Notes: generated by a model from the sequence alone, not told the origin. A stretch of DNA of 20,000 nucleotides from Chiloscyllium plagiosum (GCF_004010195.1 NC_057751.1:19537358-19557357), one strand, 5' to 3'. Counted from the first letter of the stretch, positions 1,541 to 20,000 are shown. Translations and numbers: made by a program.

Positions 1541-2490
1541 CTTGAACCCCACCCTTCCAACCACAACAAGGACAGAACCCCCAAGTCCTCACCTTCCACC
1601 CCACCAACCTCTAGAAAAATCACATCATCCTCTGCCACTTCCACCAGCTACAAACAGACCCCACCTCCAGAGATAATTTCCCTCCCCACCCCTATAAGCA
1701 TTTTGGAAAGACTCCATTCCTGCTGCGACTCCCTTGTCAGATCCATGACCCCACCAGCCCTCATTCCACTCCCGGCACCCTTCCCTGCCACCACAGAAAG
1801 TGCAACATCTGTGCCCACACCTACCCCCCTCACCTTCGTCCAAAGGATCCTTTCACATTCAACAGAAATTTACCTGTACCTCCACTAATGTCATCTACTG
1901 TATTTGTCGCATCTGATGTGGTCTCCTCTACATTGGGGAGACAGGACTTCAACGTGTGGATCGTTTCAGAGAACATCTCTGGGACAGCCGCACCAACCAG
2001 CCTGACCACCCTGTGGCTGAACACTTTGACTCCCCCTTCCATTCCATCAAGTACATGCAGGTCCTGAGCCTCCTCCATCGCCAAACACTAACCACCCGAA
2101 GCCTGGAGGAGGAACGCCTCATATTCCGCCTTGGGACCCCGCAACCACATGGAATCAATGTGGATTTCAACAGTTGCCTCATTCCCCCCCCATTCCCAGT
2201 TTCAAGCCTCCAACTCTACACCACTCTCTTGAGCTGTCCATCACCTTTCCCATCTATCCCCTCCACCCCTTCTCCAACCTATCACCTTCTTCCTCACCTT
2301 CATCTACTTATTGCATTCTCAGCTACCTTCCCTCCAGCTCCACCCTGTCCCATTTATCTCTCAGCACCCACCTCCCATCCCAACCCACAAGCCTCATTCC
2401 TGATGAAGGGTTTACGCCCGAAACATCGATTCTCCTGCTTTTCGGATGCTGCCTGACCTGCTGTTCTTTCCCAGCACCACACTCTTGACT
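1538..2490 (+). mobile_element. 5'-truncated Penelope-like element (Neptune-type): Cys linker, GIY-YIG endonuclease, pyrimidine-rich 3' UTR, terminal repeat with HHR
   Basis: CHHRKCNIC at 1786-1812. VIYCICRI*CGLLYIGETG at 1890-1946 is in frame with ORF 1956 (DRFREHL..PVAEHF..EEERLIFRLGTPQPHGINVDF), a PLE GIY-YIG domain. In-frame TGA at 1914 and frameshifts indicate an inactive copy. Confidence 0.9.
2395..2432 (+). ncRNA. Minimal type-I hammerhead ribozyme motif in the PLE terminal repeat (degenerate)
   Basis: CTGATGA (2400-2406), extra A, stem II GGGT/GCCC (2408-2419), GAAA (2420-2423), then CATC (other copies here have CGTC or CGTT). Helix I is weak. PLE terminal repeats are known to carry such minimal HHRs. 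Confidence 0.7.
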
Positions 2491-3045: not shown

Positions 3046-3373
3046 GATTAGATGAGATTAGATTACTTAGTGTGGAAACGGGCCCTTCGGCCCAGCTAGT
3101 CCACACCGACCCTCCGAAGAGCAACCTACCCAGACCCATTCCTCTACATTTAGCCCTTCACCTAACACTACGGGCAATTTAGCATGGCCAATTCACCTAA
3201 CCTGCACATTTGTTTTTGGATTGTAGGAGGAAACCGGAGCACCCAGAGGAAACCCACGCAGACACGGGGAGAATGTGTAAACTCCACATAGACAGTCGCC
3301 TGAGGCGGGAATTGAACCTAGGTTTCTGGCGCTGTGAGGCAGCAGTGCTAACCACTGTGTCACCGTATCGCCC
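3046..3373 (-). mobile_element. Full-length HE1 SINE (tRNA-derived V-SINE)
   Basis: Reverse complement aligns end to end with 5497-5816: tRNA-like head, V-domain, CR1-like tail with (TAATC)n. Confidence 0.93.
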
Positions 3374-3375
3374 AT

Positions 3376-3526
3376 TTAGATTAAATTCCCTACAGTGTGG
3401 AAACAGGCCCTTCGGCCCAACCAGTCCACACCGACTCTCTGAAGAGTAACCCAGACCCATTTCCCTCTGACTAATGCACCTAACACTATGGACAATTTAG
3501 CATGGTTAATTCACCTAACCTGCACA
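3376..3526 (-). mobile_element. 5'-truncated HE1 SINE (different subfamily variant)
   Basis: Tail and 3' body only; carries the variant atttccctctgactaatgcac. Confidence 0.85.
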
Positions 3527-3580
3527 ATTGAAATGATAGGAAGGTAAAGAGCATAGGAAGGAAATTGGAACAGTGGTATC

Positions 3581-3692
3581 GTGCATTAGTCAGAGGGAAA
3601 TAGGACTGGGCGGGGTTACTCTTCGGAGGGTCGGTGTGGACTTGTTGGGCCGAAGGGCCTGTTTCCACACTCGGTAATCTAATCTAATCTAA
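3581..3692 (+). mobile_element. 5'-truncated HE1 SINE
   Basis: gtgcattagtcagagggaaat..gaagggcctgtttccacact..taatctaatctaatc; inverted relative to 3376-3526 and has the same variant. Confidence 0.85.
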
Positions 3693-4106: not shown

Positions 4107-5496
4107 CTAAAAATTGACTTGAATTGAGGAAACTTCCCTTTCTAACAGCTTTTTTTAAAAAAAATGTGTTATTTCTTGTGTGGTTTCAAATCCCTTTTGT
4201 CATCTTCATTTTCTTTCCTTCATAAATATTTCTAGGCTGCACATCTGCTATTGACATGCTGTCCCCTGTAATGCTGCTCAGAGGCTAGGTGTGAGCTATT
4301 GTACAAAATGCTGCCTGCTGTTTGGGGAGGGAGCTTGGCAATACCATTTGTCCTGTGACCAAGTACAGGAACTCTGCATAACAAAGATTAAACCCTGTGC
4401 CCCACCTAAATTTCATGAACTAGAACTGGCCAGATCTACAAAGCACCATCATTCACAGACAATAAATGGAAAAGCCCATATCTCATTTTGTATTTTAGTA
4501 TTTGCTGAAGCAGTTTACCTGTAAGTACATCAACCTCATTAGCGCAGTGCCCTTATTGCACACACAAAAGGAATCCTATCGTGCTCGTAATTTCCCCTCT
4601 CATTGGTTTTAATTTGCCTCTCTCGTCCTTGCTACCTTACTGTGCTTCCACCAATGGAGGGGGTTCACCAGCACCATGAAAGATCCTTTTCAGTAGAAGT
4701 AATTCTGTATTCTATCTGTTTGTAAAAACCCCAGTTATGATTATCATCAGATCCTTCTGTGCTAAGATGCTAAGTTGTCTTGTTCCGACTACTGCAGGGC
4801 TCTATTAACAGCGAATGGTGGATTAAAAGGAGCAAGAGTTAGTTTTAGATTTATTAATATTGGCAGAGGTTGACTAGAGAGTATAGCTTTCCAATCGAAG
4901 CAGTATGCCATTACAGTATCCAAACTGTGTGATATCTCGGAATGTATTACAAAAGCTCACCTTTTTCGACATGACAGCAACGCTGTGTGTTTATTAACAT
5001 CAACTGAGATGGGTTCCTGGCAGAAATGTGTGCTTCTGTATAAGGTACACTTCCTCCAACCTGTTTGCCGTTTTCTTTTGTATGTTAATGGTGGTCAAAC
5101 CACTTGTCAAACAAAAACACATGAATTATGAATTAGGAGCAGGAGTAGGCCGTTCGGCCTCTGAAGCCTGCTCTGCCATTCAGTAAGATAATGGCTCATC
5201 TGTTTGTATCAAATTCCGCATTCCCATCTACATCCAATAACTCTTTGATTCCTCTGTTAGACAAGGGTCTGTCCATTTCCGCATTAAATGTATATTCAAT
5301 GAACCACTTCCACTGCCTTCTGAGACAGAGTTCCAAAGTCTCTCAGCCCTCTGAGGAAACAAAAGTTCTCTTCATGCCCTGTCCTGAAAGGGTATCCCCT
5401 AATTTTAAGAGTACCCCCTTCTGGACTCACTCACAAGAGCCAACACTATTTCCACATCCATCTTGTCCAGACCAGGCAGCATCTGGCGGCAGTTGT

Positions 5497-5816
5497 GGGC
5501 GGCACGGTGGCACAGTGGTTAGCACTGCTGCCTCACAGCGCCAGAGACCCGGGTTCAATTCCCGCCTCAGGCGACTGACTGTGTGGAGTTTGCACGTTCT
5601 CCCCGTGTCTGTGTGGGTTTCCTCCGGGTGCTCCGGTTTCCTCCCACAGTCCAAAGATGTGCAGGTCAGGTGAATTGGCCATGCTAAATTGCCTGTAGTG
5701 TTAGGTAAGGGGTAAATGTAGGGGTATGGGTGGGTTGCGCTTCGGCGGGGCGGTGTGGACTTGTTGGGCCGAAGGGCCTGTTTCCACACTGTAAGTAATC
5801 TAATCTAATCTAATCT
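5497..5816 (+). mobile_element. Full-length HE1 SINE
   Basis: Pol III A box TGGCACAGTGG 5508-5518, B box GGTTCAATTCC 5552-5562, V-domain (tgtgtggagtttgcacgttctccccgtgtc..tccggtttcctcccac), (TAATC)n tail. Confidence 0.95.
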
Positions 5817-6268
5817 TATACACTTAGTGAAGTCATCCATCACCCTTCAAAACTCCAGTGGAATCAAGTCCAGACTGTCCAACCTTTCCTTATAAGGCAA
5901 CCTGCTAATTCCAGGGACCAATCCAGTAAACTTCCACTGAATCACCTCTAATACATTTCCATCCTTCCTTTTAAACAAGGCGACCAGAACTACGTGCACT
6001 ATTCAGGATGTGTTCTCACCAAGGTTTTGTGTAACTGAAGCATAACATCCTCACTTTTATTTTCAATTCCTCTCTTAATAAAAGCTAGCATCCCATTAGC
6101 CTTCCTGATTTTGTGTTGTCAGTGCAGATTAATTTCCTGTGACTCATGCACTAGGACACCTCAATCCCTCTGCCCCTGAGAATTCTGCACTCCTTCTCCA
6201 TTTAAGTAATACTCTACTTTTTTTATTCTTCCTGCCAAAGTGAATACATTGGCCTTTTCCCACTCCAT

Positions 6269-6735
6269 CGTGAGATTGCACAAAATGTTGGTGAGGCCTC
6301 GTCTGGCTTACTGTGTGTAATTCTGGTTGCCCTGTTATGTGGAGAGTGTTGAGAAGAGATTTACCACAATGTTTCTGGGATTGGGAGGTTTGAGATATAA
6401 GAATAGATGGAAAGGCTGGGACTTATTCATTGGAATGTAGGAGGTTGAGGGGTGACCTTAATGAGGTTTATAGAATCATAAGGGGCATAGATAAGGTGAA
6501 TGACAAGGGTCTTTTCCTGAGGGTGGCTGAGTTCAAAGCTAGAGAGGCATATTTTTAAAGATGAGCAGGATTTAAAAAGGACATGAGAGGCAACTTCTTT
6601 TACACAATGAGTGGTTCATGTGTGGAATGAACTGCCAGAGAAAGTGGTGGATGCAGGTACAGTTACAACTTTTAAAAAGCATTTGGATAAGTTCATGAAT
6701 AGGCAAGGTTTGGTGGGATATGGGCCAGGAGCAGA
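6269..6735 (+). mobile_element. CR1 LINE 3' fragment
   Basis: LVRPRLAYCV*FW..RRLRGDLNEVYRIIRGIDKV..VWNELPEKVVDAGTVTTFKKHLD; decayed. Confidence 0.88.
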
Positions 6736-7401: not shown

Positions 7402-7978
7402 CTGTATGATTCTAAGGTTCTGTCAGACTTTGGCCCATTCACTTAACCTATCCCTAGCTCTCTGCATTCTTTCAATGTCATCCTCACAAAAACCTGACAA
7501 AGTTTCAATTATCAGGCCTCCTGTTTTCAATCTGAATCTGAGATCTGGTCTGAAAATCTTCTATCATCCTGTGACTGTCAGCAATCAGATCTTGTTGACA
7601 GGAAATTGAAGGAACTGTGAGAAGTCAACCTATTCTATCCGATGGATTTGAAACCTTGACCACCAGGAGTGTTTTATTTTGCTTTTTTAGGAAGCCTGTG
7701 ACATCTCTGCAGGGTTGTAGTATCTCATAGTCCGTGGAGAAATGTGTATATTGAGATTAAGTGGATTTGGTTCAAGTCGACACAGTAGTGTACTCTGCCA
7801 CTTCTTTAAAGAATAAAAAAAAATTTGTATATAATAGACAAGTTGCTTTTGAGTATATTGAAATAACCTACTGAAGCTTTTTTCTAGATAAATAAAGATA
7901 AATAAATTGGCCATTTTGGACATTGCAACACGTACCAATAGTGTAAATGTTCCAGAGTAGTGGAGCTTCATTATCAGT

Positions 7979-8175
7979 CTAGATTAGTGTGGTGCTGGAA
8001 AAGCACAGCAGGGCAGGCAGCATCCGAGGAGCAGGAAAATTGACGTTTCGGGCAAAAGTCCTTCATCAGGCTTTTGCCCAAAACGTCGATATTCCTGCTC
8101 CTCGGATGCTTCCTGCTCTTCTGTGCTTTTCCAGCACCACTCTAATCTCAAGCATCTGCAGTCCCCACTTCTGCT
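7979..8175. mobile_element. PLE-derived fold-back element E1 with HHR core at its apex and 16-bp TSD
   Basis: Inverted arms 7981-8062 and 8068-8148, loop TCATC 8063-8067, tail 8149-8175. Flanked by exact GAGCTTCATTATCAGT at 7963-7978 and 8176-8191. Arms are homologous to 2399-2490. Confidence 0.9.
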
Positions 8176-8899
8176 GAGCTTCATTATCAGTACACTCTTC
8201 CTGGCAGAATCAGAATACTAGTTACTTCTTGGCGATGACAACTGAAGCTGATAATGTCTTCACCCAATTACACACATTCACCTTTCAGTAGAGATTTTGG
8301 TAACTTGTTAGGAGCTGTGCTGTGCTGGCTGTCAGTGCAGTCAAATCTATCCCATTTTTCTTACCTCTGCCTAAAAATGCAGGGGTCAATTGTAACACGC
8401 TGCTTGAGATCAGCGAACCTGTATCTCAGAGTTTTGTGTGGTTTAGCCCCACACACAAGGCCTTTATCCATTCAGCCTCATGGACAGTTCAGTCTCTGTA
8501 TGTTTTAATGCTCGCTATTTGAAAATGAACTGACTCAGACTCATGATCTCTGGTAACAGTGAATATATTTTAATGGAATGAACCTTGCCCAGGCACAAGG
8601 AGACAACCAGAAATAAATTCTAAAATATACTTTAATGCATAATATTTATTTTATGTGCAAATAGTGTACGTTATAAAACTAATCTTCCACATACATACAG
8701 AGATTTGCACCTTATATAGACTAACAGAGATCCCTCACTACAGGGGTTGCAGGTATGATAGTCCACATTATAAGACTGCTGCCATTGACCCTTTATATTC
8801 CAAAGCAAATTCTGCATTTGGACGTTAAGCTAAATTCTATCAAAGCCATCATGTTTTTCTTTGGCTACAGTTATTGACAGCTTGGCTAATATTTATGTG

Positions 8900-9040
8900 T
8901 GTATCAACATTGCTAAAATGATCTGGTCATTTTATCTCATTATTGTTTGTAGGAGCTTGCTGTATGCAAATTGGCAGCATGTCGTATGTTGCTATAATGA
9001 CTACACTTCAATAATAATACTAGAGAATTCCAAGGGTTGT
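8900..9040 (+). mobile_element. Deu-domain SINE fragment (SacSINE1/AmnSINE1-like)
   Basis: tgtttgtaggagcttgctgtatgcaaattggcagc..atgactacacttcaa; homologous to 12895-13076 and 15503-15640. Confidence 0.65.
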
Positions 9041-9210
9041 GAAGCTTTGGATTTCCCTCTCCCAGAGGATTGTGGCTACTCCATTGTTGTCATGGATTCA
9101 GGGGAGAGAAAGTGGAGTTACGGCTGATGATCAGCCATCATTGTACCAAATGGTGAAGCAGTCCCAAGGAAAGTATGGACTGCTCTTGCTTCTATTTTTT
9201 TTATGCTCCT
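9039..9210 (+). mobile_element. Decayed CR1 3' end
   Basis: gatcagccatcattgtaccaaatggtgaagcag..atggactgctcttgcttctattt resembles the reverse complement of the CR1 terminus at 5122-5200. Confidence 0.55.
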
Positions 9211-11330
9211 CAATCTCTACGAAGCACATTGGGATGTGCGGAGGTTCTGAAAGAAATGCCCATCTTTTTGATTTATTTTTAAATGCTTCTACTTGTGTTG
9301 ATTGAGGGCTTATCTATCTTTCCTCACCTTAATGTTGTGCTTTTACAGTTGGTACCATTCATTGCTCTACCTCCAGTTAGGAATGTTAAATAGCAGCCAA
9401 ACATCTTCAGGGGCATTCTGCTGTTTGATGATTCACTCTAGCCAAGCGTCAGTGGGGAATTGCAGGCATGAACCTTAATCTTTTCCTCCTCTACTATACA
9501 ATCAAATAGTAGAATGAAAAGCTGTGCTATAGAGGGCCAACAGCTTTCACTATATCCTTAACTCCCACACCTGCTTTGGGGACAGCTGGCTGGTCTATGT
9601 TGGCTAGCCTTAGTCTCAACTCACTGTTATCAAAACCTTTAACTACAAGCAGATCAAACAAATTACATGGAAAAGAAAAATAGGGTTTTGAACAAAATAT
9701 ATCATCCAAGTACTGAATACTCATATCACTGAAATAATGGTTCTCTCTTCTGGCAGACTTTGGCATGTTTGCTCTCCATTCATGAAGCTTAAATGAGTAT
9801 GTACATGGTAAAAACAAGTTATATTTAACACTGTGTTACAAAAATGAATCAATTCATGCAAACAATGAAACAATGCATTTTAAGGAGGTATGAAATGAAC
9901 CACATTGTGAACCAGTTCTACAGACTGCAAGCTCTCTCTGTATCCAGGCAACTCTCTCCTTTTCCCCCCCTCCTGCCATATCTGACTGCAGCAGTGACTC
10001 CGTGAGAGTGGAGAGCAGAGTGCCTCACCACAGGCTGACGTTTCTATGCTTGGTGCTGTTAATTGCATCCGTTTATTGTTGATTACAGTTTATCTTCATA
10101 TTGGGACCCACAATCTGGCAGTAAGAAGAAGATGGGATGTCAGTGCTATCCATGTTGTCAGTGCAACCAGATGCTGAATTAACTCTAGTCATCCTTGTGC
10201 AGAGTCCTGATCCCTTGTTCCAAACCAGAAGCAATAACATCGTTCTTAAAAATGGCAGTAGTTCAGTGTAACAGCTGGCTTGGCTCTTTGCAGGTATGAA
10301 TCAGGAGCTCCTACATTGTAGTTTTCTTTGGAAGTGCATGGACTTCATAAAAATATGTTTACAAAATTCCTATGTATCAACATAGATACTCATCCCTCTT
10401 TCTCTGCCAAGAAAGTACTTTTGCAAAATACTTTTTCATCTGGACATAAGAGTACATTGGTTGTCCCAATGTGTCTGGCAGCACAGACTTTCTCAATACT
10501 TTCCCAGCCCCCAGGAGTTAGAATGTCCTTGTGGTAGCAAACATACACCATCTGCTCTCATTTGGCTTAGAAAATGCCACACTTAGCTTTCAACTTAGCC
10601 ATGCCAAGGCATCAGTTCATCAAGTGCAGCTCAAGCAGCCAAACCCACATGATATAAGCTAAGGCCCCAGCTGATCTGAGACAATCCAGCAATGTACTTT
10701 TTATCCTGCTGGTCTGTTCAAATGTCTTGGCCTAAATACTCCCAACACATCACCTTTCCCCCATCCCTCCTCTGCAGGAACAAACAGTTGCAGTTGGGCA
10801 TGTTCTGTCATTCATCATTTGTCACTGGCGGTTGGAATCTATCCTAATGGAAACACATTATGGAATCATTTCCAGTGTCATGTAAACATCACACTAGTCT
10901 CTCAGTAAACTCGATTGGGAGATTTAATAAACTACTGCTTCCCCACAATTAAAAAAGAAAGACAAGTTAGGATAAAGCAGAGGTTGAAACAGGTGGAGAA
11001 TGCGATAGCTTTTTATTCTTTGTTTGAATACTGATTGAGTTACAGAGCTTTTGATTTCCACATTGTTAGCTTGGTATCATCGGTAAACAAAAAGTCTCAA
11101 TTTGTTTTTCACGAAATTAATTAATTCAAATAAGGATCTGGAATATTTGTAGACATAAAGCAAACTGAAATCAATGTTCAAGGACACTGAATAATTGCAC
11201 TGTGTAAGCAAGAGACTTAAGTAGACAGGTGATAGTTTTATGTCACTCCATTGTCTGAGCAACAGGTCAACTCCCACCTTTTGAGGGTTGTTTTTGTACA
11301 ACTCACTGTAGTTTCAAACCCATCAGCATC

Positions 11331-11501
11331 TGTCGTGATTAGAACCAGGTGGACCTGGTTAACCATGAGGTTCTTGATTGGGGTTAGAATCTCCTCAGTT
11401 GAGGACTGACTCTGAGTTGGCTGGCCACAGCTCGTGTACTGTGCTCTAGTAAAGAAAGGGTGACTTGGTGACAGGACACCGACCTTAGTACAGTTATTTC
11501 A
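11331..11501 (+). mobile_element. Probable short solo LTR
   Basis: Begins TG and ends TTATTTCA; flanked by GCATC (11326-11330) and GTATC (11502-11506), a 5-bp TSD with one mismatch; degenerate polyA-like motif about 50 nt from the 3' end. Confidence 0.5.
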
Positions 11502-12340
11502 GTATCACCCATACAATGCTCTGCGCCATGAATTCTGCTCTCTTAAATATTAATTAATTATCCTTCAACACAGGTTCAAGTTCCCCTCAAAGTACAGTCA
11601 GTAAACATACTGCGAAGTATGAAGTGAATCATACAGACCTATATCATCTCTGTTGGGTGTTGCAATACCCTATTGCTAACTTCAGTCTTACTGAAAATCC
11701 AGAACCAACTCTTTCTCCTTCCAATCACTTTCAGCTAACCATTAGCAGAGGGAAACTCTGTACAAGTCGACAGTAATAAAGACCTGGCTTGTCAATGTGG
11801 AAGATAGTTGCATCTCAAACATCTCTGTACAAGAACAGCAATGGATAAATGTGAACTTGGAATGGAGCAGGATTCTTGCGGAATGGCCCAGATCCCATTT
11901 ACAGAAGCACCTGATCTGTCCAATCCACAGTGCAGTGGCAACACAGGCCTCATTTGCCATTTTCCAAAAGTAGAATTAGACAAAAATCAAATTGAAGTGG
12001 AGGAGTTAACTTCCAATTTGCTTGACAGTGTAGGTCCATGCATTCCCTGAGAGATCTGAGAAAATGGTGAGCATTAAATCCTGATGTGGTCATGTTCATA
12101 TCCGTTTGCTGCAGCTTTTAATTTTATGGTTTTATTACGTCCTTTGGTTTCATTATTTCACTGTCTTCAGTACCTTCTCAATGATAATAGAGGCTGAGTG
12201 GCAGTTAGTTACCTTTCAGATATTCCCCACTTTCTGCTTCTATAACAAGAAATGAAGTAAGACAATTAGATTCAGAACATATTAAGAACTGATTAACCTT
12301 TGTTATTATCGCTGTATTCAATATCATAGGATTGGGAGGG

Positions 12341-12629
12341 AGATTAGATTACTTTAGATTAGATTACTTAGTGTGGAAACAGGCCCTTCGGCCCAACAAG
12401 TCCACACCGACCCACTGAAGCGCACCCACCCAGACCCTAACACTACGGGCAATTTAGCGTGGCCAATTCACCTAACATTTTTGGACTGTGGGAGGAAACT
12501 GGAGCACCCGGACGAAACCCACGCAGACACGGGGAGAATGTGCAAACTCCACACAGGCAGTCACCTGAGGCGGGAATTGACCCCGGGTCTCTGGCGCTGT
12601 GAGGCAGCAGTGCTAACCACTGTGCCACC
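12341..12629 (-). mobile_element. Near full-length HE1 SINE with small internal deletions
   Basis: Reverse complement aligns to 5497-5816; tail unit agattagattactt is duplicated. Confidence 0.93.
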
Positions 12630-12631
12630 CA

Positions 12632-12730
12632 AAATCATACAGAACAGGAAACTTCAGCCCATCGTGCCTCTGCTAGGTTATCCAAATAGTCATAATCCCC
12701 TGATTTTCCCCATAGCCCTACAACCCTTGC
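12632..12730 (-). mobile_element. Old CR1 3'-end fragment adjoining the HE1 head
   Basis: atcatacagaacagga..ttcagcccatcgtgcctctgctag..ttttccccatagccct, a typical reverse-complemented CR1 tail. Confidence 0.45.
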
Positions 12731-12894
12731 TACCTTCATCACTGAGTGGCTCCATTTATTTTGCCCTGACCTGTAAGAAAGCCACCTAACCATAGCACAG
12801 CAGATTAGGTGCTATGGCATACCACGTCAGGGATATATTCCCAACAGGTTAGGTGCCACAGATTGGATGAAGGGAGCTGCTCTGTGACATAGAC

Positions 12895-13076
12895 AGCAAT
12901 CATTATCACTCAAACAGATGGTCATGTGACTGTTGCAGGAACTTGCTGTGTGCAAGTTGCCTGCTGTGTTTCCAATATTGAAACAGTGACTATATTACAA
13001 AAGAGATAATTGGCTACAAAGCACTTTGGTCATCCTGAGGTTATGAAAGGTGCTATGTGAATACGAGTGTTTCTTT
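12895..13076 (+). mobile_element. Deu-domain SINE 3' half
   Basis: ggaacttgctgtgtgcaagttgcctgctgtgtttcc..aacagtgacta..ttggctacaaagcactttgg..cctgaggttatgaaaggtgctatgtgaatacgagtgtttcttt. Confidence 0.75.
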
Positions 13077-13554
13077 AACATCAGTTTAGTAAATCTGATG
13101 TATTCATAAATATGATTGAAGAGAGGAACTTGTGAGGGGCATTCTTGCTTCAAGCGTTCTGGGGATTACCTTTAGATTGTTTTTGTGTTCAATTCAAGTG
13201 ATACACACAGACCAAATGTCAACCCCCGCCCCTCGCCCTCAGAGATATACTCCTGCTTTTGGAAGTGGGTGTTTGGATCAAGGTCTGATCTCACCCCCAC
13301 AGTCCTCCTACCTGAAAACACACTCACTTCTTAGCTTACTGTCACCTCCTCTCTGGATACTCCCCTTGGCTGCAGGGGGTCAGTTTGCCTTGCCAGTTGT
13401 ATGATACCACCTTAGCCAAACGAAGCCGATCTCAACTGTTAACACTTTAATCCCTTAATAGACGAGACTGGCAAAAAACTTTGTCGATCACAGATTTTCA
13501 AACTGTGAATTCAGCTAACATCAACTGTAATACATGGGTTCAAATCCCACTCAA

Positions 13555-13790
13555 CAATCACAGCAACTTATATTTATTTAGCATTTTGAACACAGTAAAG
13601 GTGCTTCACAGGAATGTTATAAAACAAAATATGAGACAGTTGCACATGTTAGGGTAAATGCATAAATGCTTGGTCAAAGAGGTACGTTTTAAAGGAGGAA
13701 GGAGAGCCAGAGAGATTGAGGGGGGAGACTTCCACAGGTTTTGGTAGTTGAAAGCATTGCTGACAATTGTGGAACAATTAAAGTGAGAGA
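13555..13790 (-). mobile_element. L2-like LINE 3' end, interrupted by the CR1 at 13789
   Basis: caacttatatttatttagcatttt..aaggtgcttcacagga..gcttggtcaaagaggtacgttttaaaggagga; terminus resembles the reverse complement of the Deu-SINE tail. The clade call is from memory. Confidence 0.5.
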
Positions 13791-15025
13791 TAGAGTTACA
13801 GAGATGTACAGCATGGAAACAGACCCTTCGGTCCAACTTGTCCATGCCGACCAGATATTCCAACCCAATCTAGTCCCCTTTGCCAACATTTGGCCCATAT
13901 CCCTCTAAACCCTTCCTATTCATATACCCATAAATGCTGTAACTGTACCAGCCTCCACCACTTCCTCTGGCAACTCATTCCATACACGCACCACCCTTTG
14001 CATGAAAAAGTTGACCCTTAGGTCCCTTTCACATCTTTCCCCTCTCACCCGAAACCTATGCCCTCTAGTTCTGGACTTCCCCACCCCAGGGAAAAGACTT
14101 TGTCTATTTACCCTATCCATGCCCCTCATGATTTTATAAACTTCTATAAGGTCACCCCTCAGCCTCTGATGCTCCAGGGAAAACAGCCCCAGTCTATTCA
14201 GCCTCTCCCTATAGCTCAAATCTTCCAACCCTGGCAACATCCTTGTAAATCTTTTCTGAACCCTTTCAAGTTTCACAGCATCTTTCCAACAGGAAGGAGA
14301 CCAGAATTGCACACAATATTCCAACAGTGGCCTAACCAATGTCCTGTACAGCTGCAATATGACCTCACAACTCCTGTACTCAATAGTCTGACCAATAAAG
14401 GAAAGCATACCAAACGCCGCCTTCACTATCCTATCTACCTGCGACTCCACTTTCAAGGAGCTATGAACCTGCACTCCAAGGTCTGTTTGCTCAGCAACAC
14501 TCCCCAGGACCTTACCATTAAGTGTATAAGTCCTGCTCTGGTTTGCTTTCCCAAAATGCAGCACCTCGCATTTATCTGAATTAAATTCCACCTGTCACTC
14601 CTCAGCCCATTGGCCCATCTGATCAAGATCTCATTGTACTCTGAGGTAACCTTCTTCGCTGTCCACTACACCTCCAATTTTGGTGTCATCTGCAAACTCA
14701 CTAACTGTACCTCTGATGTGCACGTCAAAATCATTTATATAAATGACAAAAAGCAGTGGACCCAGCACCCGATCCTTGTGGCACACCATTGGTCACAGTC
14801 TGAAAAGCAACCCTCCACCACCACCCTCTGTCTTCCACCTTTGAGTCAGTTCTGTATCCAAATGCCTAGTTCTCCCTGTATTCCATGAGATTTAACCTTG
14901 CTAATCAGTCTCCCATGATGAACCTTGTCGAATGCCTTACTGAAGTCCATATAGATCACATCTACCGCTCTGCCCTCATCAATCCTTTGTTACATCTTCA
15001 AAAAACTCAATCAAGTTATGAGACA
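13789..15025 (-). mobile_element. Relatively young 5'-truncated CR1 LINE (HER1-like)
   Basis: YMDFSKAFDKV (~14920-14953), FADD (14685-14696), and an uninterrupted 223-aa ORF 13920-14591 (MEFNSDKCEVLHFG..LVRPLLEYCVQFWSP..RVVRVWNELP). 3' tail is shared with HE1. Confidence 0.95.
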
Positions 15026-15182
15026 TGTGCAAGATGCCCCAATTAGAATAAAGACATTGCTTAACCACAGGTTAATATAGGTCATTGGGCATAGAAAGTA
15101 ATGGGTGGATGGGACTCGGAGCTGAAAAGGAGTACAGGTCGTAAAGTTTTGGAAGATCTCAGGTTGGTAGACAGTGGAAGAT

Positions 15183-15383
15183 GGGAAAAGTGAGGACTGC
15201 AGATGCTGGAAATCAGAGCTTAGAGTGGTGCTGGAAAAGCACAGCCGGTCAGGCAGCATCCGAGGAGCAGGAAAATCAACGTTTCGGGCAAAAGCCCTTC
15301 ATCAGGACTTTTGCCCGAAACGTTGATTTTCCTGCTCCTCGGATGTTGCCTGACCGACTGTGCTTTTCCAGCACCACTCTAAT
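15183..15383. mobile_element. PLE-derived fold-back element E2 with intact HHR motif on the minus strand and 16-bp TSD
   Basis: Tail 15183-15219; 79-bp arms 15220-15298 and 15304-15382 with 3 mismatches; loop TCATC. Flanked by exact GTAGACAGTGGAAGAT at 15167-15182 and 15384-15399. Confidence 0.92.
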
Positions 15384-15453
15384 GTAGACAGTGGAAGATA
15401 GGAGGCTAGCCAGGATGCATTGGAACATTTGAATCTGGAGGCAACACATCAGA

Positions 15454-16053: not shown

Positions 16054-16304
16054 CTGTTGCAGAGAGTGGGGCAGTTGACACTCGCCCCTAAAGCTGGCAA
16101 GGAAAGGGAAGCGTTTTGCAGACAAACTATCTGATTCCCGTAGGTAAGCTCTGAGGGATAACTAGGTAAATTTAGCCTCACCAGTCTTAGAAAAAGACAC
16201 CCGAACCAGACCCTGAGAGATGTGTCTAGGACACAGTGGGATAGCAAAACAGCAGTAGCAGCTGGCCCAGAGCATGAAGACAGAGTCAAACCTCTGAAGG
16301 ACAA

Positions 16305-16435
16305 AGTGAAGAGTGCAGATGCTGGAGATCAGAGACGACAGTGCGATACTGGAAAAGCAGTCGGTCAGGCAGCATCTGAGGAACAGGAGAATCGACTGGC
16401 TGTGCTTTTCCAGCAGCACACTCTCGACTCAAGGT
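16305..16435. mobile_element. Centre-deleted fold-back element E3
   Basis: Same tail and left arm as E2, jumping at 16396/16397 to the distal right arm; HHR absent. Degenerate TSD TCTGAAGG(A/G)CAA at 16293-16304 and 16436-16447. Confidence 0.75.
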
Positions 16436-18956: not shown

Positions 18957-19490
18957 ATAGAATCTTGACAGTGCGGGAAGAGGCTATCAGGTCTGCACCG
19001 ACCCTCCGAAGAGCATCCCACCCAACCCCTGTCCCTGTCCCAATCCCCAGAACCCTGCACTTCCCATGGCTAATCCACCCTAACCTGCACATCCCCGGAC
19101 ACAATGGGACAATTTCCCATGGCAAACCCACCCTAACCTGCACATCCCCGGACACAATGGGACAATTTCCCATGGCAAACCCACCCTAACCTGCACATCC
19201 CTGGGCACAACGGGGACAATTTCCCATGGCCAATCCACCCTAACCTGCACATCCCTGGGCACTACGGGACAATTTAGCACGGCCAATCCACCCTAACCTA
19301 CACATCCCCGGGCACTAGGACAATTTAGCATGGCCAATCCACCCTAACCTACACATCCCCGGGCACTACGGAACAATTTAGCACGGTCAATCCCACCCTA
19401 ACCTACACATCCCCGGGCACTACGGGACAATTTAGCACAGTCAATCCACCCTAACTTGTGCATCCCTGGGCATTATGGGACAATTAAGCA
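18957..19490 (-). repeat. HE1-type SINE 3' tail followed by ~8 tandem copies of a 51-54-bp HE1 internal segment
   Basis: TAAC(C/T)T anchors at 19081, 19134, 19187, 19241, 19294, 19345, 19399, 19452. The unit matches the single-copy HE1 segment at ~3165-3208. Confidence 0.9.
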
Positions 19491-20000
19491 CCTCGTGCTC
19501 CCGCGAGGAGGTTGATCAATTCATCGACTTCACCAACACCTTCCACCCTGACCTTAAATTTACCTGGACCATCTTTGACACCTCCATCCCCTTCCTGGAC
19601 CTCTCCATCTCCATTAATGACGACTGACTTGACACTGACATGTTTTTACAAACCCACTGACTCCCACAGCTACCTGGATTACACCTCTTTCCACCCTACC
19701 TCCTGCAAAAATGCCATCCCGTATTCCCAATTCCTCCGCCTCCACCATATCAGCTCTCAGGAGGACCTGTTCCACCATAGAACACACCAGATGGCCTCCT
19801 TCTTTAGAGACCGCAATTTCCCTTCCCACGTGGTTAAAGATGCCCTCCAACGCATCTCGTCCACAACCCGCACCTCCGCCCTCAGACCTTACCCTTCCAA
19901 CCGTAACAACGACAGAACACCCCTGGTGCTCACCTTCCACCCTACCAACCTTCGCTTAAACCAAATCATCCACCGACATTTCCGCCACCTCCAAAAAGAC
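19491..20000 (+). mobile_element. Neptune-type PLE RT C-terminal/thumb fragment (continues past the window)
   Basis: FTNTFHPDLKFTWTI..IPFLDLSISI..*..(frameshift)FYKPTDSHSYLDYTSFHP..KNAIPYSQFLRL..RTPLVLTFHP. Its last ~120 nt are homologous to 1538-1660. Confidence 0.9.

Follow-up and report, generated by a model that had tools for sequence, protein, structure and literature searches.

Fold-back copies of a Penelope-like element 3' end

The window analyzed here is a 20,000-nucleotide (nt) stretch of the Chiloscyllium plagiosum genome (GCF_004010195.1 NC_057751.1:19537358-19557357), and coordinates without a contig or locus name are counted from its first letter. It contains two short insertions, E1 (7979-8175) and E2 (15183-15383), which direct reading and a repeat search identified as fold-backs of the 3' end of a Penelope-like element (PLE), that is, as two inverted copies of that end meeting at a hammerhead ribozyme. 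E1 and E2 are the smallest form of a known head-to-head PLE insertion pattern and are stereotyped by-products of PLE integration. Both are enclosed by target-site duplications (TSDs), and the window also holds a third, shorter fold-back and remnants of two longer PLE copies, one of them from the reverse transcriptase (RT) domain. The features are as follows.

1573..2490, plus strand: non-inverted longer PLE copy, 3' part (direct reading and tblastn)
7963..7978, no strand: left copy of the E1 TSD (gagcttcattatcagt), read directly and identical to 8176-8191
7979..8070, minus strand: E1 tail-less arm, with PLE sense on the minus strand (direct reading and repeat search)
8071..8175, plus strand: E1 tailed arm, with PLE sense on the plus strand (direct reading and repeat search)
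8176..8191, no strand: right copy of the E1 TSD (gagcttcattatcagt), read directly
15167..15182, no strand: left copy of the E2 TSD (gtagacagtggaagat) (direct reading and repeat search)
15183..15307, minus strand: E2 tailed arm, with PLE sense on the minus strand (direct reading and repeat search)
15308..15383, plus strand: E2 tail-less arm, with PLE sense on the plus strand (direct reading and repeat search)
15384..15399, no strand: right copy of the E2 TSD (gtagacagtggaagat), read directly
16296..16433, no strand: third, shorter fold-back of the same PLE end (direct reading and repeat search)
19487..20000, plus strand: RT-domain remnant of another PLE copy, running off the window (tblastn)

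The two arms of E2 (15220-15298 and 15304-15382) are 79 nt long, 96% complementary and spaced by 5 nt, with a 37-nt unpaired tail at 15183-15219 and an exact 16-bp direct repeat, gtagacagtggaagat, on the two flanks (15167-15182 and 15384-15399). Those of E1 (7981-8058 and 8071-8148) are 78 nt long, 91% complementary and 12 nt apart; the tail is shortened (8147-8175), and the flanking 16-bp repeat, gagcttcattatcagt, is again exact (7963-7978 and 8176-8191). Both insertions match the PLE 3' end at 2398-2483 by 86% in the repeat search. A preliminary description of this DNA had proposed near-perfect fold-backs of the PLE 3' end, each with one unpaired tail and an exact 16-bp TSD and each an independent insertion, and the self-complementarity, the match and the coordinates read directly all bear this out. 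The variants that it had described as private to a copy and common to both of its arms are likewise present: GTC versus GTT after GAAAC, and CCTGC versus CCTGACCG.

The apexes of E1 and E2 both lie on CCTGATGAAGG. One arm begins at, or 1 nt before, the first C of CCTGATGA, and the second begins 12-13 nt inside CCTGATGA, in the loop of stem II. The two insertions are mirror forms, with the CUGAUGA box on the tailed arm in E2 and on the tail-less arm in E1. In E2, the tailed arm holds a complete minimal hammerhead core at 15278-15306, and the tail-less arm extends from the stem II loop to ...CTCTAAT. In E1, the CUGAUGA...GAAAC core lies on the tail-less arm at 8042-8070 and has a degenerate stem II (GGAC/GCCC); the tailed arm begins in the stem II loop (CTTTTGCCC), and its GAAAC is mutated to AAAAC, i.e., G12 to A. 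Predicted RNA folds consist of one long stem each, at -141.5 kcal/mol for E1 and -155.2 kcal/mol for E2 vs. about -52 to -58 kcal/mol for 100 mononucleotide shuffles (z of about -21). The 80-bp stem in these predictions would bury GAAAC and leave CUGAUGA in the loop, with at most one intact core per copy.

The fold-back at 16296-16433 has a tailed arm (16296-16396) ending 3 nt past the ribozyme cleavage site and a short, 40-nt tail-less arm (16394-16433). Its junction differs from that of E1 and E2, indicating that the apex is not fixed even within the same window. It is flanked by a possible TSD of 8-9 bp (tctgaagg).

When the whole window was compared with Rfam at E values up to 1, no hammerhead family was matched. 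The 13 weak matches, 12 of them to microRNA (miRNA) precursor families and one to a bacterial small RNA family, all scored below the gathering score, and we took them as generic hairpin matches.

The parent element

Remnants of PLE protein had been claimed at both ends of the window, and tblastn confirmed them. The query, P0003, is a 486-amino-acid shark protein consisting of the C-terminal half of an RT, a CHRRNCKTCAH linker and a GIY-YIG domain. Its residues 246-441 matched 1573-2153 (E = 4e-41), leaving about 245 nt before the hammerhead at 2399, and its residues 106-274 matched 19487-20000 (E = 1e-74, 71-89% identity), a segment that is 89% identical in DNA to the locus L118. The copy at 1573..2490 thus combines a remnant of the endonuclease (EN) domain (1573-2153) with the module from the hammerhead to the 3' end (2399-2490), and it is tail-less. 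Both within the window and in five long copies, the matches to P0003 lay immediately upstream of the hammerhead module. A copy in better condition, L120:4898-5512, also from this genome, translates to ...VIYCIRCSQCGLLYIGETGR..., and P0003 was the best and only database relative of this translation in the search. Against Pfam, P0003 reached 16.4 bits for RVT_1 (residues 1-120), below the cut-off, and 21.7 bits for GIY-YIG (residues 354-386) vs. a cut-off of 22.6. The 12 open reading frames (ORFs) of the window, where the PLE copies are degraded, gave no Pfam match, and the ORFs of the long copies gave nothing beyond one sub-threshold GIY-YIG match.

The parent element has the features of a PLE: a single ORF with an RT followed by a C-terminal GIY-YIG endonuclease; a hammerhead motif, CUGAUGA-A-GGGC-UUUU-GCCC-GAAA-C-GUC, in the terminal repeat; and a tail of 30-40 bp at one end together with inverted or tandem partial copies. 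The 26-mer ribozyme core has 24,774 exact sites genome-wide. It shows the traits given for minimal hammerheads in the available excerpts of PMC4209133 (an extra base after A9, a G10.1-C11.1 pair and palindromic positions 15.2-16.2). The derivation of E1 and E2 from a PLE 3' terminus with a minimal hammerhead, as the preliminary description had it, is supported. Self-cleavage after GUH is putative, judged by the sequence motif. The CHRRNCKTCAH sequence of P0003 lies between RT and EN and resembles a Zn finger; a linker motif of this kind is common to Neptune and Nematis PLEs, according to excerpts of PMC8557442, and with it the assignment of the parent PLE to the Neptune clade is plausible.

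Abundance of the fold-backs and composition of the sample

We searched the 3.56-Gb genome of the source organism for further copies. With E2 as the query, full-length matches of 84-90% identity were found at 28 distinct loci, a set in which the query favors copies shaped like E2 itself. Genome-wide, the exact sites of an outer-arm 24-mer numbered 23,357. Two inverted 15-mers in the arrangement GTGCTGGAAAAGCAC-N{112,141}-GTGCTTTTCCAGCAC, in which both arms reach the ribozyme, occurred at 4,899 sites and at none in the backwards control, so that the genome holds at least 4,899 hairpins running from hammerhead to hammerhead. Binning of the distance between the 15-mers over 52-171 nt gave the following counts.

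Gap 52-81 nt: 1,098 sites, backwards control 0
Gap 82-111 nt: 2,574 sites, backwards control 0
Gap 112-141 nt (both arms reach the ribozyme): 4,899 sites, backwards control 0
Gap 142-171 nt: 831 sites, backwards control 0

An unbiased sample was formed from the first 100 exact matches to the outer-arm 24-mer on contig C1 (0-8.5 Mb, 87 regions). For every arm we measured the upstream reach relative to the first C of CCTGATGA, the downstream reach and the presence of an abutting inverted arm, and upstream reach was judged against real long copies as references. An inverted partner adjoined 43 of the 100 arms, which yielded 33 fold-backs among about 89 elements. Two copies scored as non-inverted (L038, C1:859664, and L079, C1:4662628) have a 10-15 nt inverted stub of the ribozyme core that separates the TSD from the arm, which makes 33/89 a lower bound for the proportion of fold-backs.

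Several loci show other arrangements. In L121:3735-5314 and L119:3889-5373, PLE copies stand head to head with inverted arms that extend >1 kb into the ORF by tblastn, indicating that the same architecture also occurs at large scale. The fold-back at L019:1363-1693 is inserted in the tail of an older PLE 3' end, with the TSD ttttaccttgct; insertion into the element's own terminal repeat was also seen in the in vitro work on the anole element (PMC11167929). At L069, two copies 415 bp apart (C1:3574824 and 3575239) have both flanks in common, and this pair reflects local tandem duplication of a segment containing the element, as opposed to a PLE tandem.

The 5' ends and the junctions at the hammerhead

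Arms started between -13 and +14 of CCTGATGA in 61 of the 98 scorable arms, with a mode of +3 (two arms were dropped because of N gaps); 19 arms reached further upstream and 18 were shorter. The same zone contained the starts of 35/56 non-inverted copies, and in nine of these 35 a TSD of 11-16 bp abutted that end. Since the hot spot is equally strong in non-inverted copies, the 5' edge of the ribozyme is a general hot spot for 5' ends. Among the 33 fold-backs, the zone was reached by both arms in 12, by one arm in 13 and by neither in 8. The fold point is thus not fixed, although the ribozyme is a strong hot spot. The preliminary description had offered, as one of two possibilities, a distinct MITE-looking parasite family (for miniature inverted-repeat transposable element, MITE) that always folds at the same point, and the variation of the junctions, in these fold-backs as well as across the gap bins, does not support this. 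It had also named inversion points scattered along the PLE as an observation that would tell against it; scatter was indeed found, although the strong ribozyme hot spot remains.

Contigs assembled from sequencing runs of the source organism and two related ones contained the family in every case. Loose contig ends piled up at 15306/15307, the edge of the ribozyme (868 in run X1, 1,223 in X13, 1,120 in X14 and 239 in X18), and also at 15220-15226, the tail-less 3' end, and opposite-strand contig joints led from 15307 to 15218, 15261, 15266, 15272 and 15275.

Most ends of the complementary DNA (cDNA) lay at +1 to +8, which on a reading of the sequence corresponds to the 5' strand of helix I. We rejected ribozyme self-cleavage as the source of these 5' ends, as the cut site is about 30 nt downstream of them and only 2/98 arms ended at the cleavage-site position, -29. 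A block to RT by the ribozyme structure was also rejected, since it would halt the cDNA before the motif, not after it. Long copies contain a conserved ATTTAT box about 32-36 nt upstream of CCTGATGA, and our preferred guess is that the RNA starts at the ribozyme edge; a capped RNA start within about 10 nt upstream of CCUGAUGA, if present, would account for the hot spot.

The E2-type apex at CCTGATGA, CAAAAG-N-CCTGATGAAGGGCTTTTGCCCGAAAC, had 67 exact sites genome-wide. N was C at 50 of them, forming the perfect palindrome CAAAAGCCCT-GATGA-AGGGCTTTTG in which CCT is at once the start of CCTGATGA and the complement of AGG; at 16 sites N was T (one extra T, the E2 type), and at one it was G. Further copies had fillers of 2-18 nt or a junction elsewhere, and many spacers were 0-3 nt long.

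Tails and mirror forms

The downstream ends of the sampled arms were bimodal: one class falls 0-13 nt after ...CTCTAAT, and the other has a sharp end 37-47 nt further downstream. Non-inverted copies were divided into 24 with the tail, 28 without it and 4 that were unclear, and from this 24:28 split only about 50% of fold-backs would be expected to be mixed if their arms were independent. All 25 classifiable fold-backs, however, had exactly one tail; none had two and none lacked a tail. In a second set of 12 fold-backs, which were picked solely for a perfect palindromic apex and have TSDs of about 13-16 bp, there was again one tail in 12/12, located on the ribozyme-sense arm in 5 and on the other arm in 7. 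The arm that was longer at the apex was the tailed one in 11 fold-backs and the tail-less one in 12 (equal in 2), and the asymmetry between arms was sometimes large, e.g., +4 vs. -63 or +23 vs. -67.

These counts bear on a one-strand snap-back, in which a single cDNA reaches the RNA 5' end at the ribozyme, folds its 3' end on the CCT/AGG mini-hairpin, self-primes the second strand and joins the other side of the break. A strand copied from itself would have its arms both tailed or both tail-less, an outcome seen in 0/25 and 0/12 fold-backs; its first cDNA would have to be the longer arm, yet the tail-less arm was longer about as often as the tailed one; and the large asymmetries go beyond what inversion of a loop explains. 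We therefore regard the snap-back as unlikely, even though the commonest apexes are those that a CCT/AGG hairpin primer predicts (the 50 perfect palindromes plus the 16 E2-type sites of the 67) and the 0-3 nt spacers of many junctions would suit it. The preliminary description had offered a stereotyped snap-back product of PLE integration as its second possibility. In that proposal, the stereotyped product of integration is essentially right, and the snap-back of one strand does not explain the one-tail rule together with the equal mirror forms.

Target-site duplications and relatedness of the arms

TSDs were sought with a finder that tolerates slack at the boundaries, and mismatched flanks served as the control. 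A score of ≥10 was reached in 19/65 elements vs. 3/256 controls. The length of the duplications ranged from 11 to 19 bp with a median of 13, so the constant 16 bp that E1 and E2 had suggested does not extend to the family. The TSD encloses the whole fold-back in E1 and E2, in 6/9 sampled pairs and, as judged by eye, in 10/12 of the second set.

Among young copies, variants private to a copy and common to both of its arms were found in E1, E2, L019, L028, L125, L128, L129 and L132. Across 28 copies, the median identity was 0.902 between arms of the same copy vs. 0.887 between arms of different copies, and an arm's own partner was its closest relative in 7/28 copies (chance expectation, <1). Left-left, right-right and left-right comparisons between copies all gave 0.886-0.889, with no differences diagnostic of one arm, and the members of one subfamily (L128, L129, L132 and L135) differ in tail side and apex. 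This pattern fits arms that were identical at insertion and then decayed, rather than arms descended from a hairpin master.

Descent from such a master would mean a self-propagating, non-autonomous, MITE-looking family in which a hairpin is transcribed and the whole fold-back is copied by the PLE RT. Thousands of copies of similar size and shape are what one would expect of it, and a read-through transcript of a fold-back would hold a usable 3' module. We nevertheless consider this origin quite improbable: apex, spacer and tail side vary within a single subfamily, the arms lack specific diagnostic differences, non-inverted copies resemble the fold-backs in their 5' hot spot and in having the two classes of 3' ends, and the fold-backs derive from several PLE subfamilies and include some with arms hundreds of bases long (L057, L061, L121 and L136). 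Rearrangement after insertion, whereby an ordinary 5'-truncated PLE end became a palindrome at the ribozyme hairpin through inverted duplication or through template switching during replication, could have found switching seeds in the short inverted repeats of stem II and CCT/AGG but is very hard to credit, because the TSDs flank the whole fold-back and not one arm, strict one-tail asymmetry is not expected from duplication of an existing arm, and the published PLE enzyme extends both strands (PMC11167929).

Contigs from organism B enter E2 from both of its unique flanks, by 27 and 20 letters, with junctions as in organism A. As these entries are shorter than the 31-letter bridging rule, they give a weak hint that E2 is common to organisms A and B and predates their split. 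The unique flanks were not covered in the run of organism C, and no empty-site joint for E2 was present among the contig joints listed.

Proposed two-strand priming at PLE integration

We conclude that E1 and E2 are probably minimal insertions, in head-to-head form, of an endonuclease-encoding PLE, produced de novo at each integration when both target strands prime RT and the two resulting cDNAs join. They were not copied from a hairpin-shaped master and do not constitute a discrete MITE-like family. In this scheme, the PLE enzyme would make a staggered cut, the 11-19 bp stagger of which becomes the TSD, and both exposed 3' ends would prime reverse transcription of PLE RNA. One cDNA would begin at a distal start site and include the tail of about 40 nt; the other would begin at a proximal start site, 0-13 nt after ...CTCTAAT. 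Most cDNAs would stop after about 100-135 nt, on reaching an RNA 5' end located at the hammerhead's 5' edge; the 3' end of one cDNA would then anneal to the other cDNA and copy it outward. The join would often be made through pairing of a terminal AGG with the internal CCT of the copied CCUGAUGAAGG, and the product would be a palindrome centered on the ribozyme core. If the cDNA that crosses over were chosen at random, the two mirror forms, the E2 type and the E1 type, would both arise. Two cDNAs, one per strand and with different start sites, would thereby account for the one-tail rule, the mirror forms, the variable length of the second arm and the TSD around the whole unit. That both strands are primed in vivo, that the steps follow this order and that RNA 5' ends lie at the ribozyme edge for the reason suggested above is what we infer from these products.

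A number of points weigh against two-strand priming or limit the observations behind it. The joining step is deduced from junction sequences, and the use of one start site per strand is an assumption of the scheme. TSDs were detected in only 19 of the 65 elements, and 8/33 fold-backs were unclassifiable for tails, having a partner that was truncated or odd in length. Among the copies found with the E2 query, one fold-back (L030) has a tail on each arm. Given the small difference in identity within and between copies, with the partner closest in only 7/28, a common origin of the two arms is not demonstrable for old copies. The sample was taken with one 24-mer, representing one subfamily group, in one 8.5-Mb stretch; the zone from -13 to +14 was set after the data had been seen, and end calls have an error of about 3 nt.

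A more specific form of two-strand priming is possible, though we put it forward tentatively and with some doubt. The transposition unit of this PLE family may be a 100-135-nt "ribozyme-to-RT-start" module, in which RNAs would begin at the hammerhead 5' edge (possibly from a promoter inside the terminal repeat), a dimeric particle would prime both strands with different RT start sites, and the cDNAs would be stitched at CCU/AGG. Use of a different start site by each protomer of the dimeric PLE particle would explain why the one-tail rule is so strict. If this is true, the approximately 5,000 hairpins are the in vivo record of an asymmetric integration on two strands that until now has been observed only in vitro, and they would also provide a lasting reservoir of 80-bp hairpin templates from which RNA silencing of the element could be fed.

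Comparison with known systems

Like MITEs, E1 and E2 are short, non-coding, hairpin-forming and flanked by TSDs. MITEs are defined by uniform ends with symmetric terminal inverted repeats that a transposase recognizes, and by a TSD that is short and constant in length. We rejected a MITE assignment for these fold-backs, in which one end is sharp and tailed, the other varies by about 13 nt, and the TSDs are long and variable (11-19 bp); junctions and arm lengths are also variable, the arms are retrotransposon 3' ends, and there is no transposase-type terminal repeat. In LINE-1 twin priming, the second target strand also primes RT, leaving an inverted segment flanked by TSDs. The second primer there anneals inside the RNA, so that the inverted and direct parts are different, adjoining regions. 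In the fold-backs described here, by contrast, both arms copy the same 3' region, and the result is a true palindrome.

The nearest precedent is found among PLEs themselves, which, according to excerpts of Craig et al. 2021 (PMC8557442), often have an inverted 5'-truncated copy and a tail of 30-40 bp at only one end. The elements in those excerpts resemble E1 and E2 in that the inverted 5'-truncated copy adjoins a direct copy with a one-end extension of 30-40 bp, and they resemble the parent PLE in their terminal-repeat hammerheads, TSDs and ORF with RT and C-terminal GIY-YIG. The preliminary description had left it undecided whether the structure had been described; the general architecture is already in print. 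E1 and E2 differ from the excerpted cases in that both copies comprise only the last 100-135 nt, giving a hairpin of about 200 bp with the ribozyme core as its loop; the excerpts mention neither the 5' hot spot at the edge of the ribozyme nor the CCT/AGG junction, nor do they say how strictly the single tail is kept.

In vitro, the purified protein of the anole PLE PAc cuts and extends the two strands of its target, initiating reverse transcription at a pair of internal sites that bracket the tail, and ribozyme cleavage is not needed (Frangieh et al. 2024, PMC11167929). The start site is preceded by the ribozyme at a distance of about 85-90 nt in that element and of about 60-100 nt here, and in neither system does ribozyme cleavage define the ends of the products (only 2/98 arms end at -29 here). 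The anole work is biochemical and concerns an element of the Poseidon clade, and its main text reports no joined head-to-head products, no rule of one start per strand and no 5' stop at the edge of the ribozyme; genomic statistics on tails and junctions may already be contained in its Fig. S1 and S2.

Minimal PLE hammerheads of Schistosoma mansoni can lie close together on opposite strands, as stated in excerpts of Cervera & de la Pena 2014 (PMC4209133), where most motifs are single and are ascribed to truncated PLEs. Pairs in that species are 100-700 bp apart and received no closer analysis in that paper, whereas the two copies here meet inside the ribozyme. Metazoan retrozymes lacking long terminal repeats are, like the fold-backs, short non-coding hammerhead derivatives of PLE terminal repeats that are presumably mobilized by PLEs, as described in the excerpted parts of PMC7229834 and of a preprint (Li et al. 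2026, 10.64898/2026.07.22.740005). Retrozyme units are arranged head to tail, and their RNA self-cleaves to unit length and circularizes; E1 and E2 are head to head, with the core buried in an 80-bp stem. With CUGAUGA on one arm only and cleavage-site ends as rare as noted above, we rejected the retrozyme assignment as well. No paper describing such hairpins in cartilaginous fishes was found in the literature listings searched or in the papers cited here.

The novelty here lies in the numbers, namely thousands of minimal copies, a ribozyme-edge hot spot for 5' ends that non-inverted copies have as well, a strict one-tail rule and equal mirror forms. For genome annotation, the hairpins should be masked as PLE insertion products and not as new MITEs, miRNA-like hairpins or retrozymes. 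The PLE integration cycle is still termed "enigmatic" in print, and its mechanism is constrained by three regularities, namely a 5' stop at the edge of the ribozyme and not at its cleavage site, a single tail, and mirror forms in equal numbers, which agree with and extend the single in vitro study of both-strand extension. The role of the hammerhead for PLEs becomes testable through junction statistics together with mapping of RNA 5' ends.

Neighboring repeats

Another interspersed repeat family, containing GTGTGGAAACAGGCCCTTCGGCCC, is represented in the window by four copies in both orientations (3046-3530, 3602-3692, 5496-5820 and 12343-12629), of which the inverted pair 5506-5660 and 12475-12629 is 95% alike. 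Three collinear inverted matches of 74-88% connect 6426-6727 with 13891-14181, two segments that flank E1 together with its downstream sequence, and these are probably two copies of a further element in opposite orientation. At 19053-19473, units of about 53 nt are repeated in tandem (six overlapping 103-nt copies), immediately upstream of the PLE RT remnant at 19487. Just left of E2, 14900-15034 is a very high-copy repeat, with a summed contig depth in the millions in all four runs.

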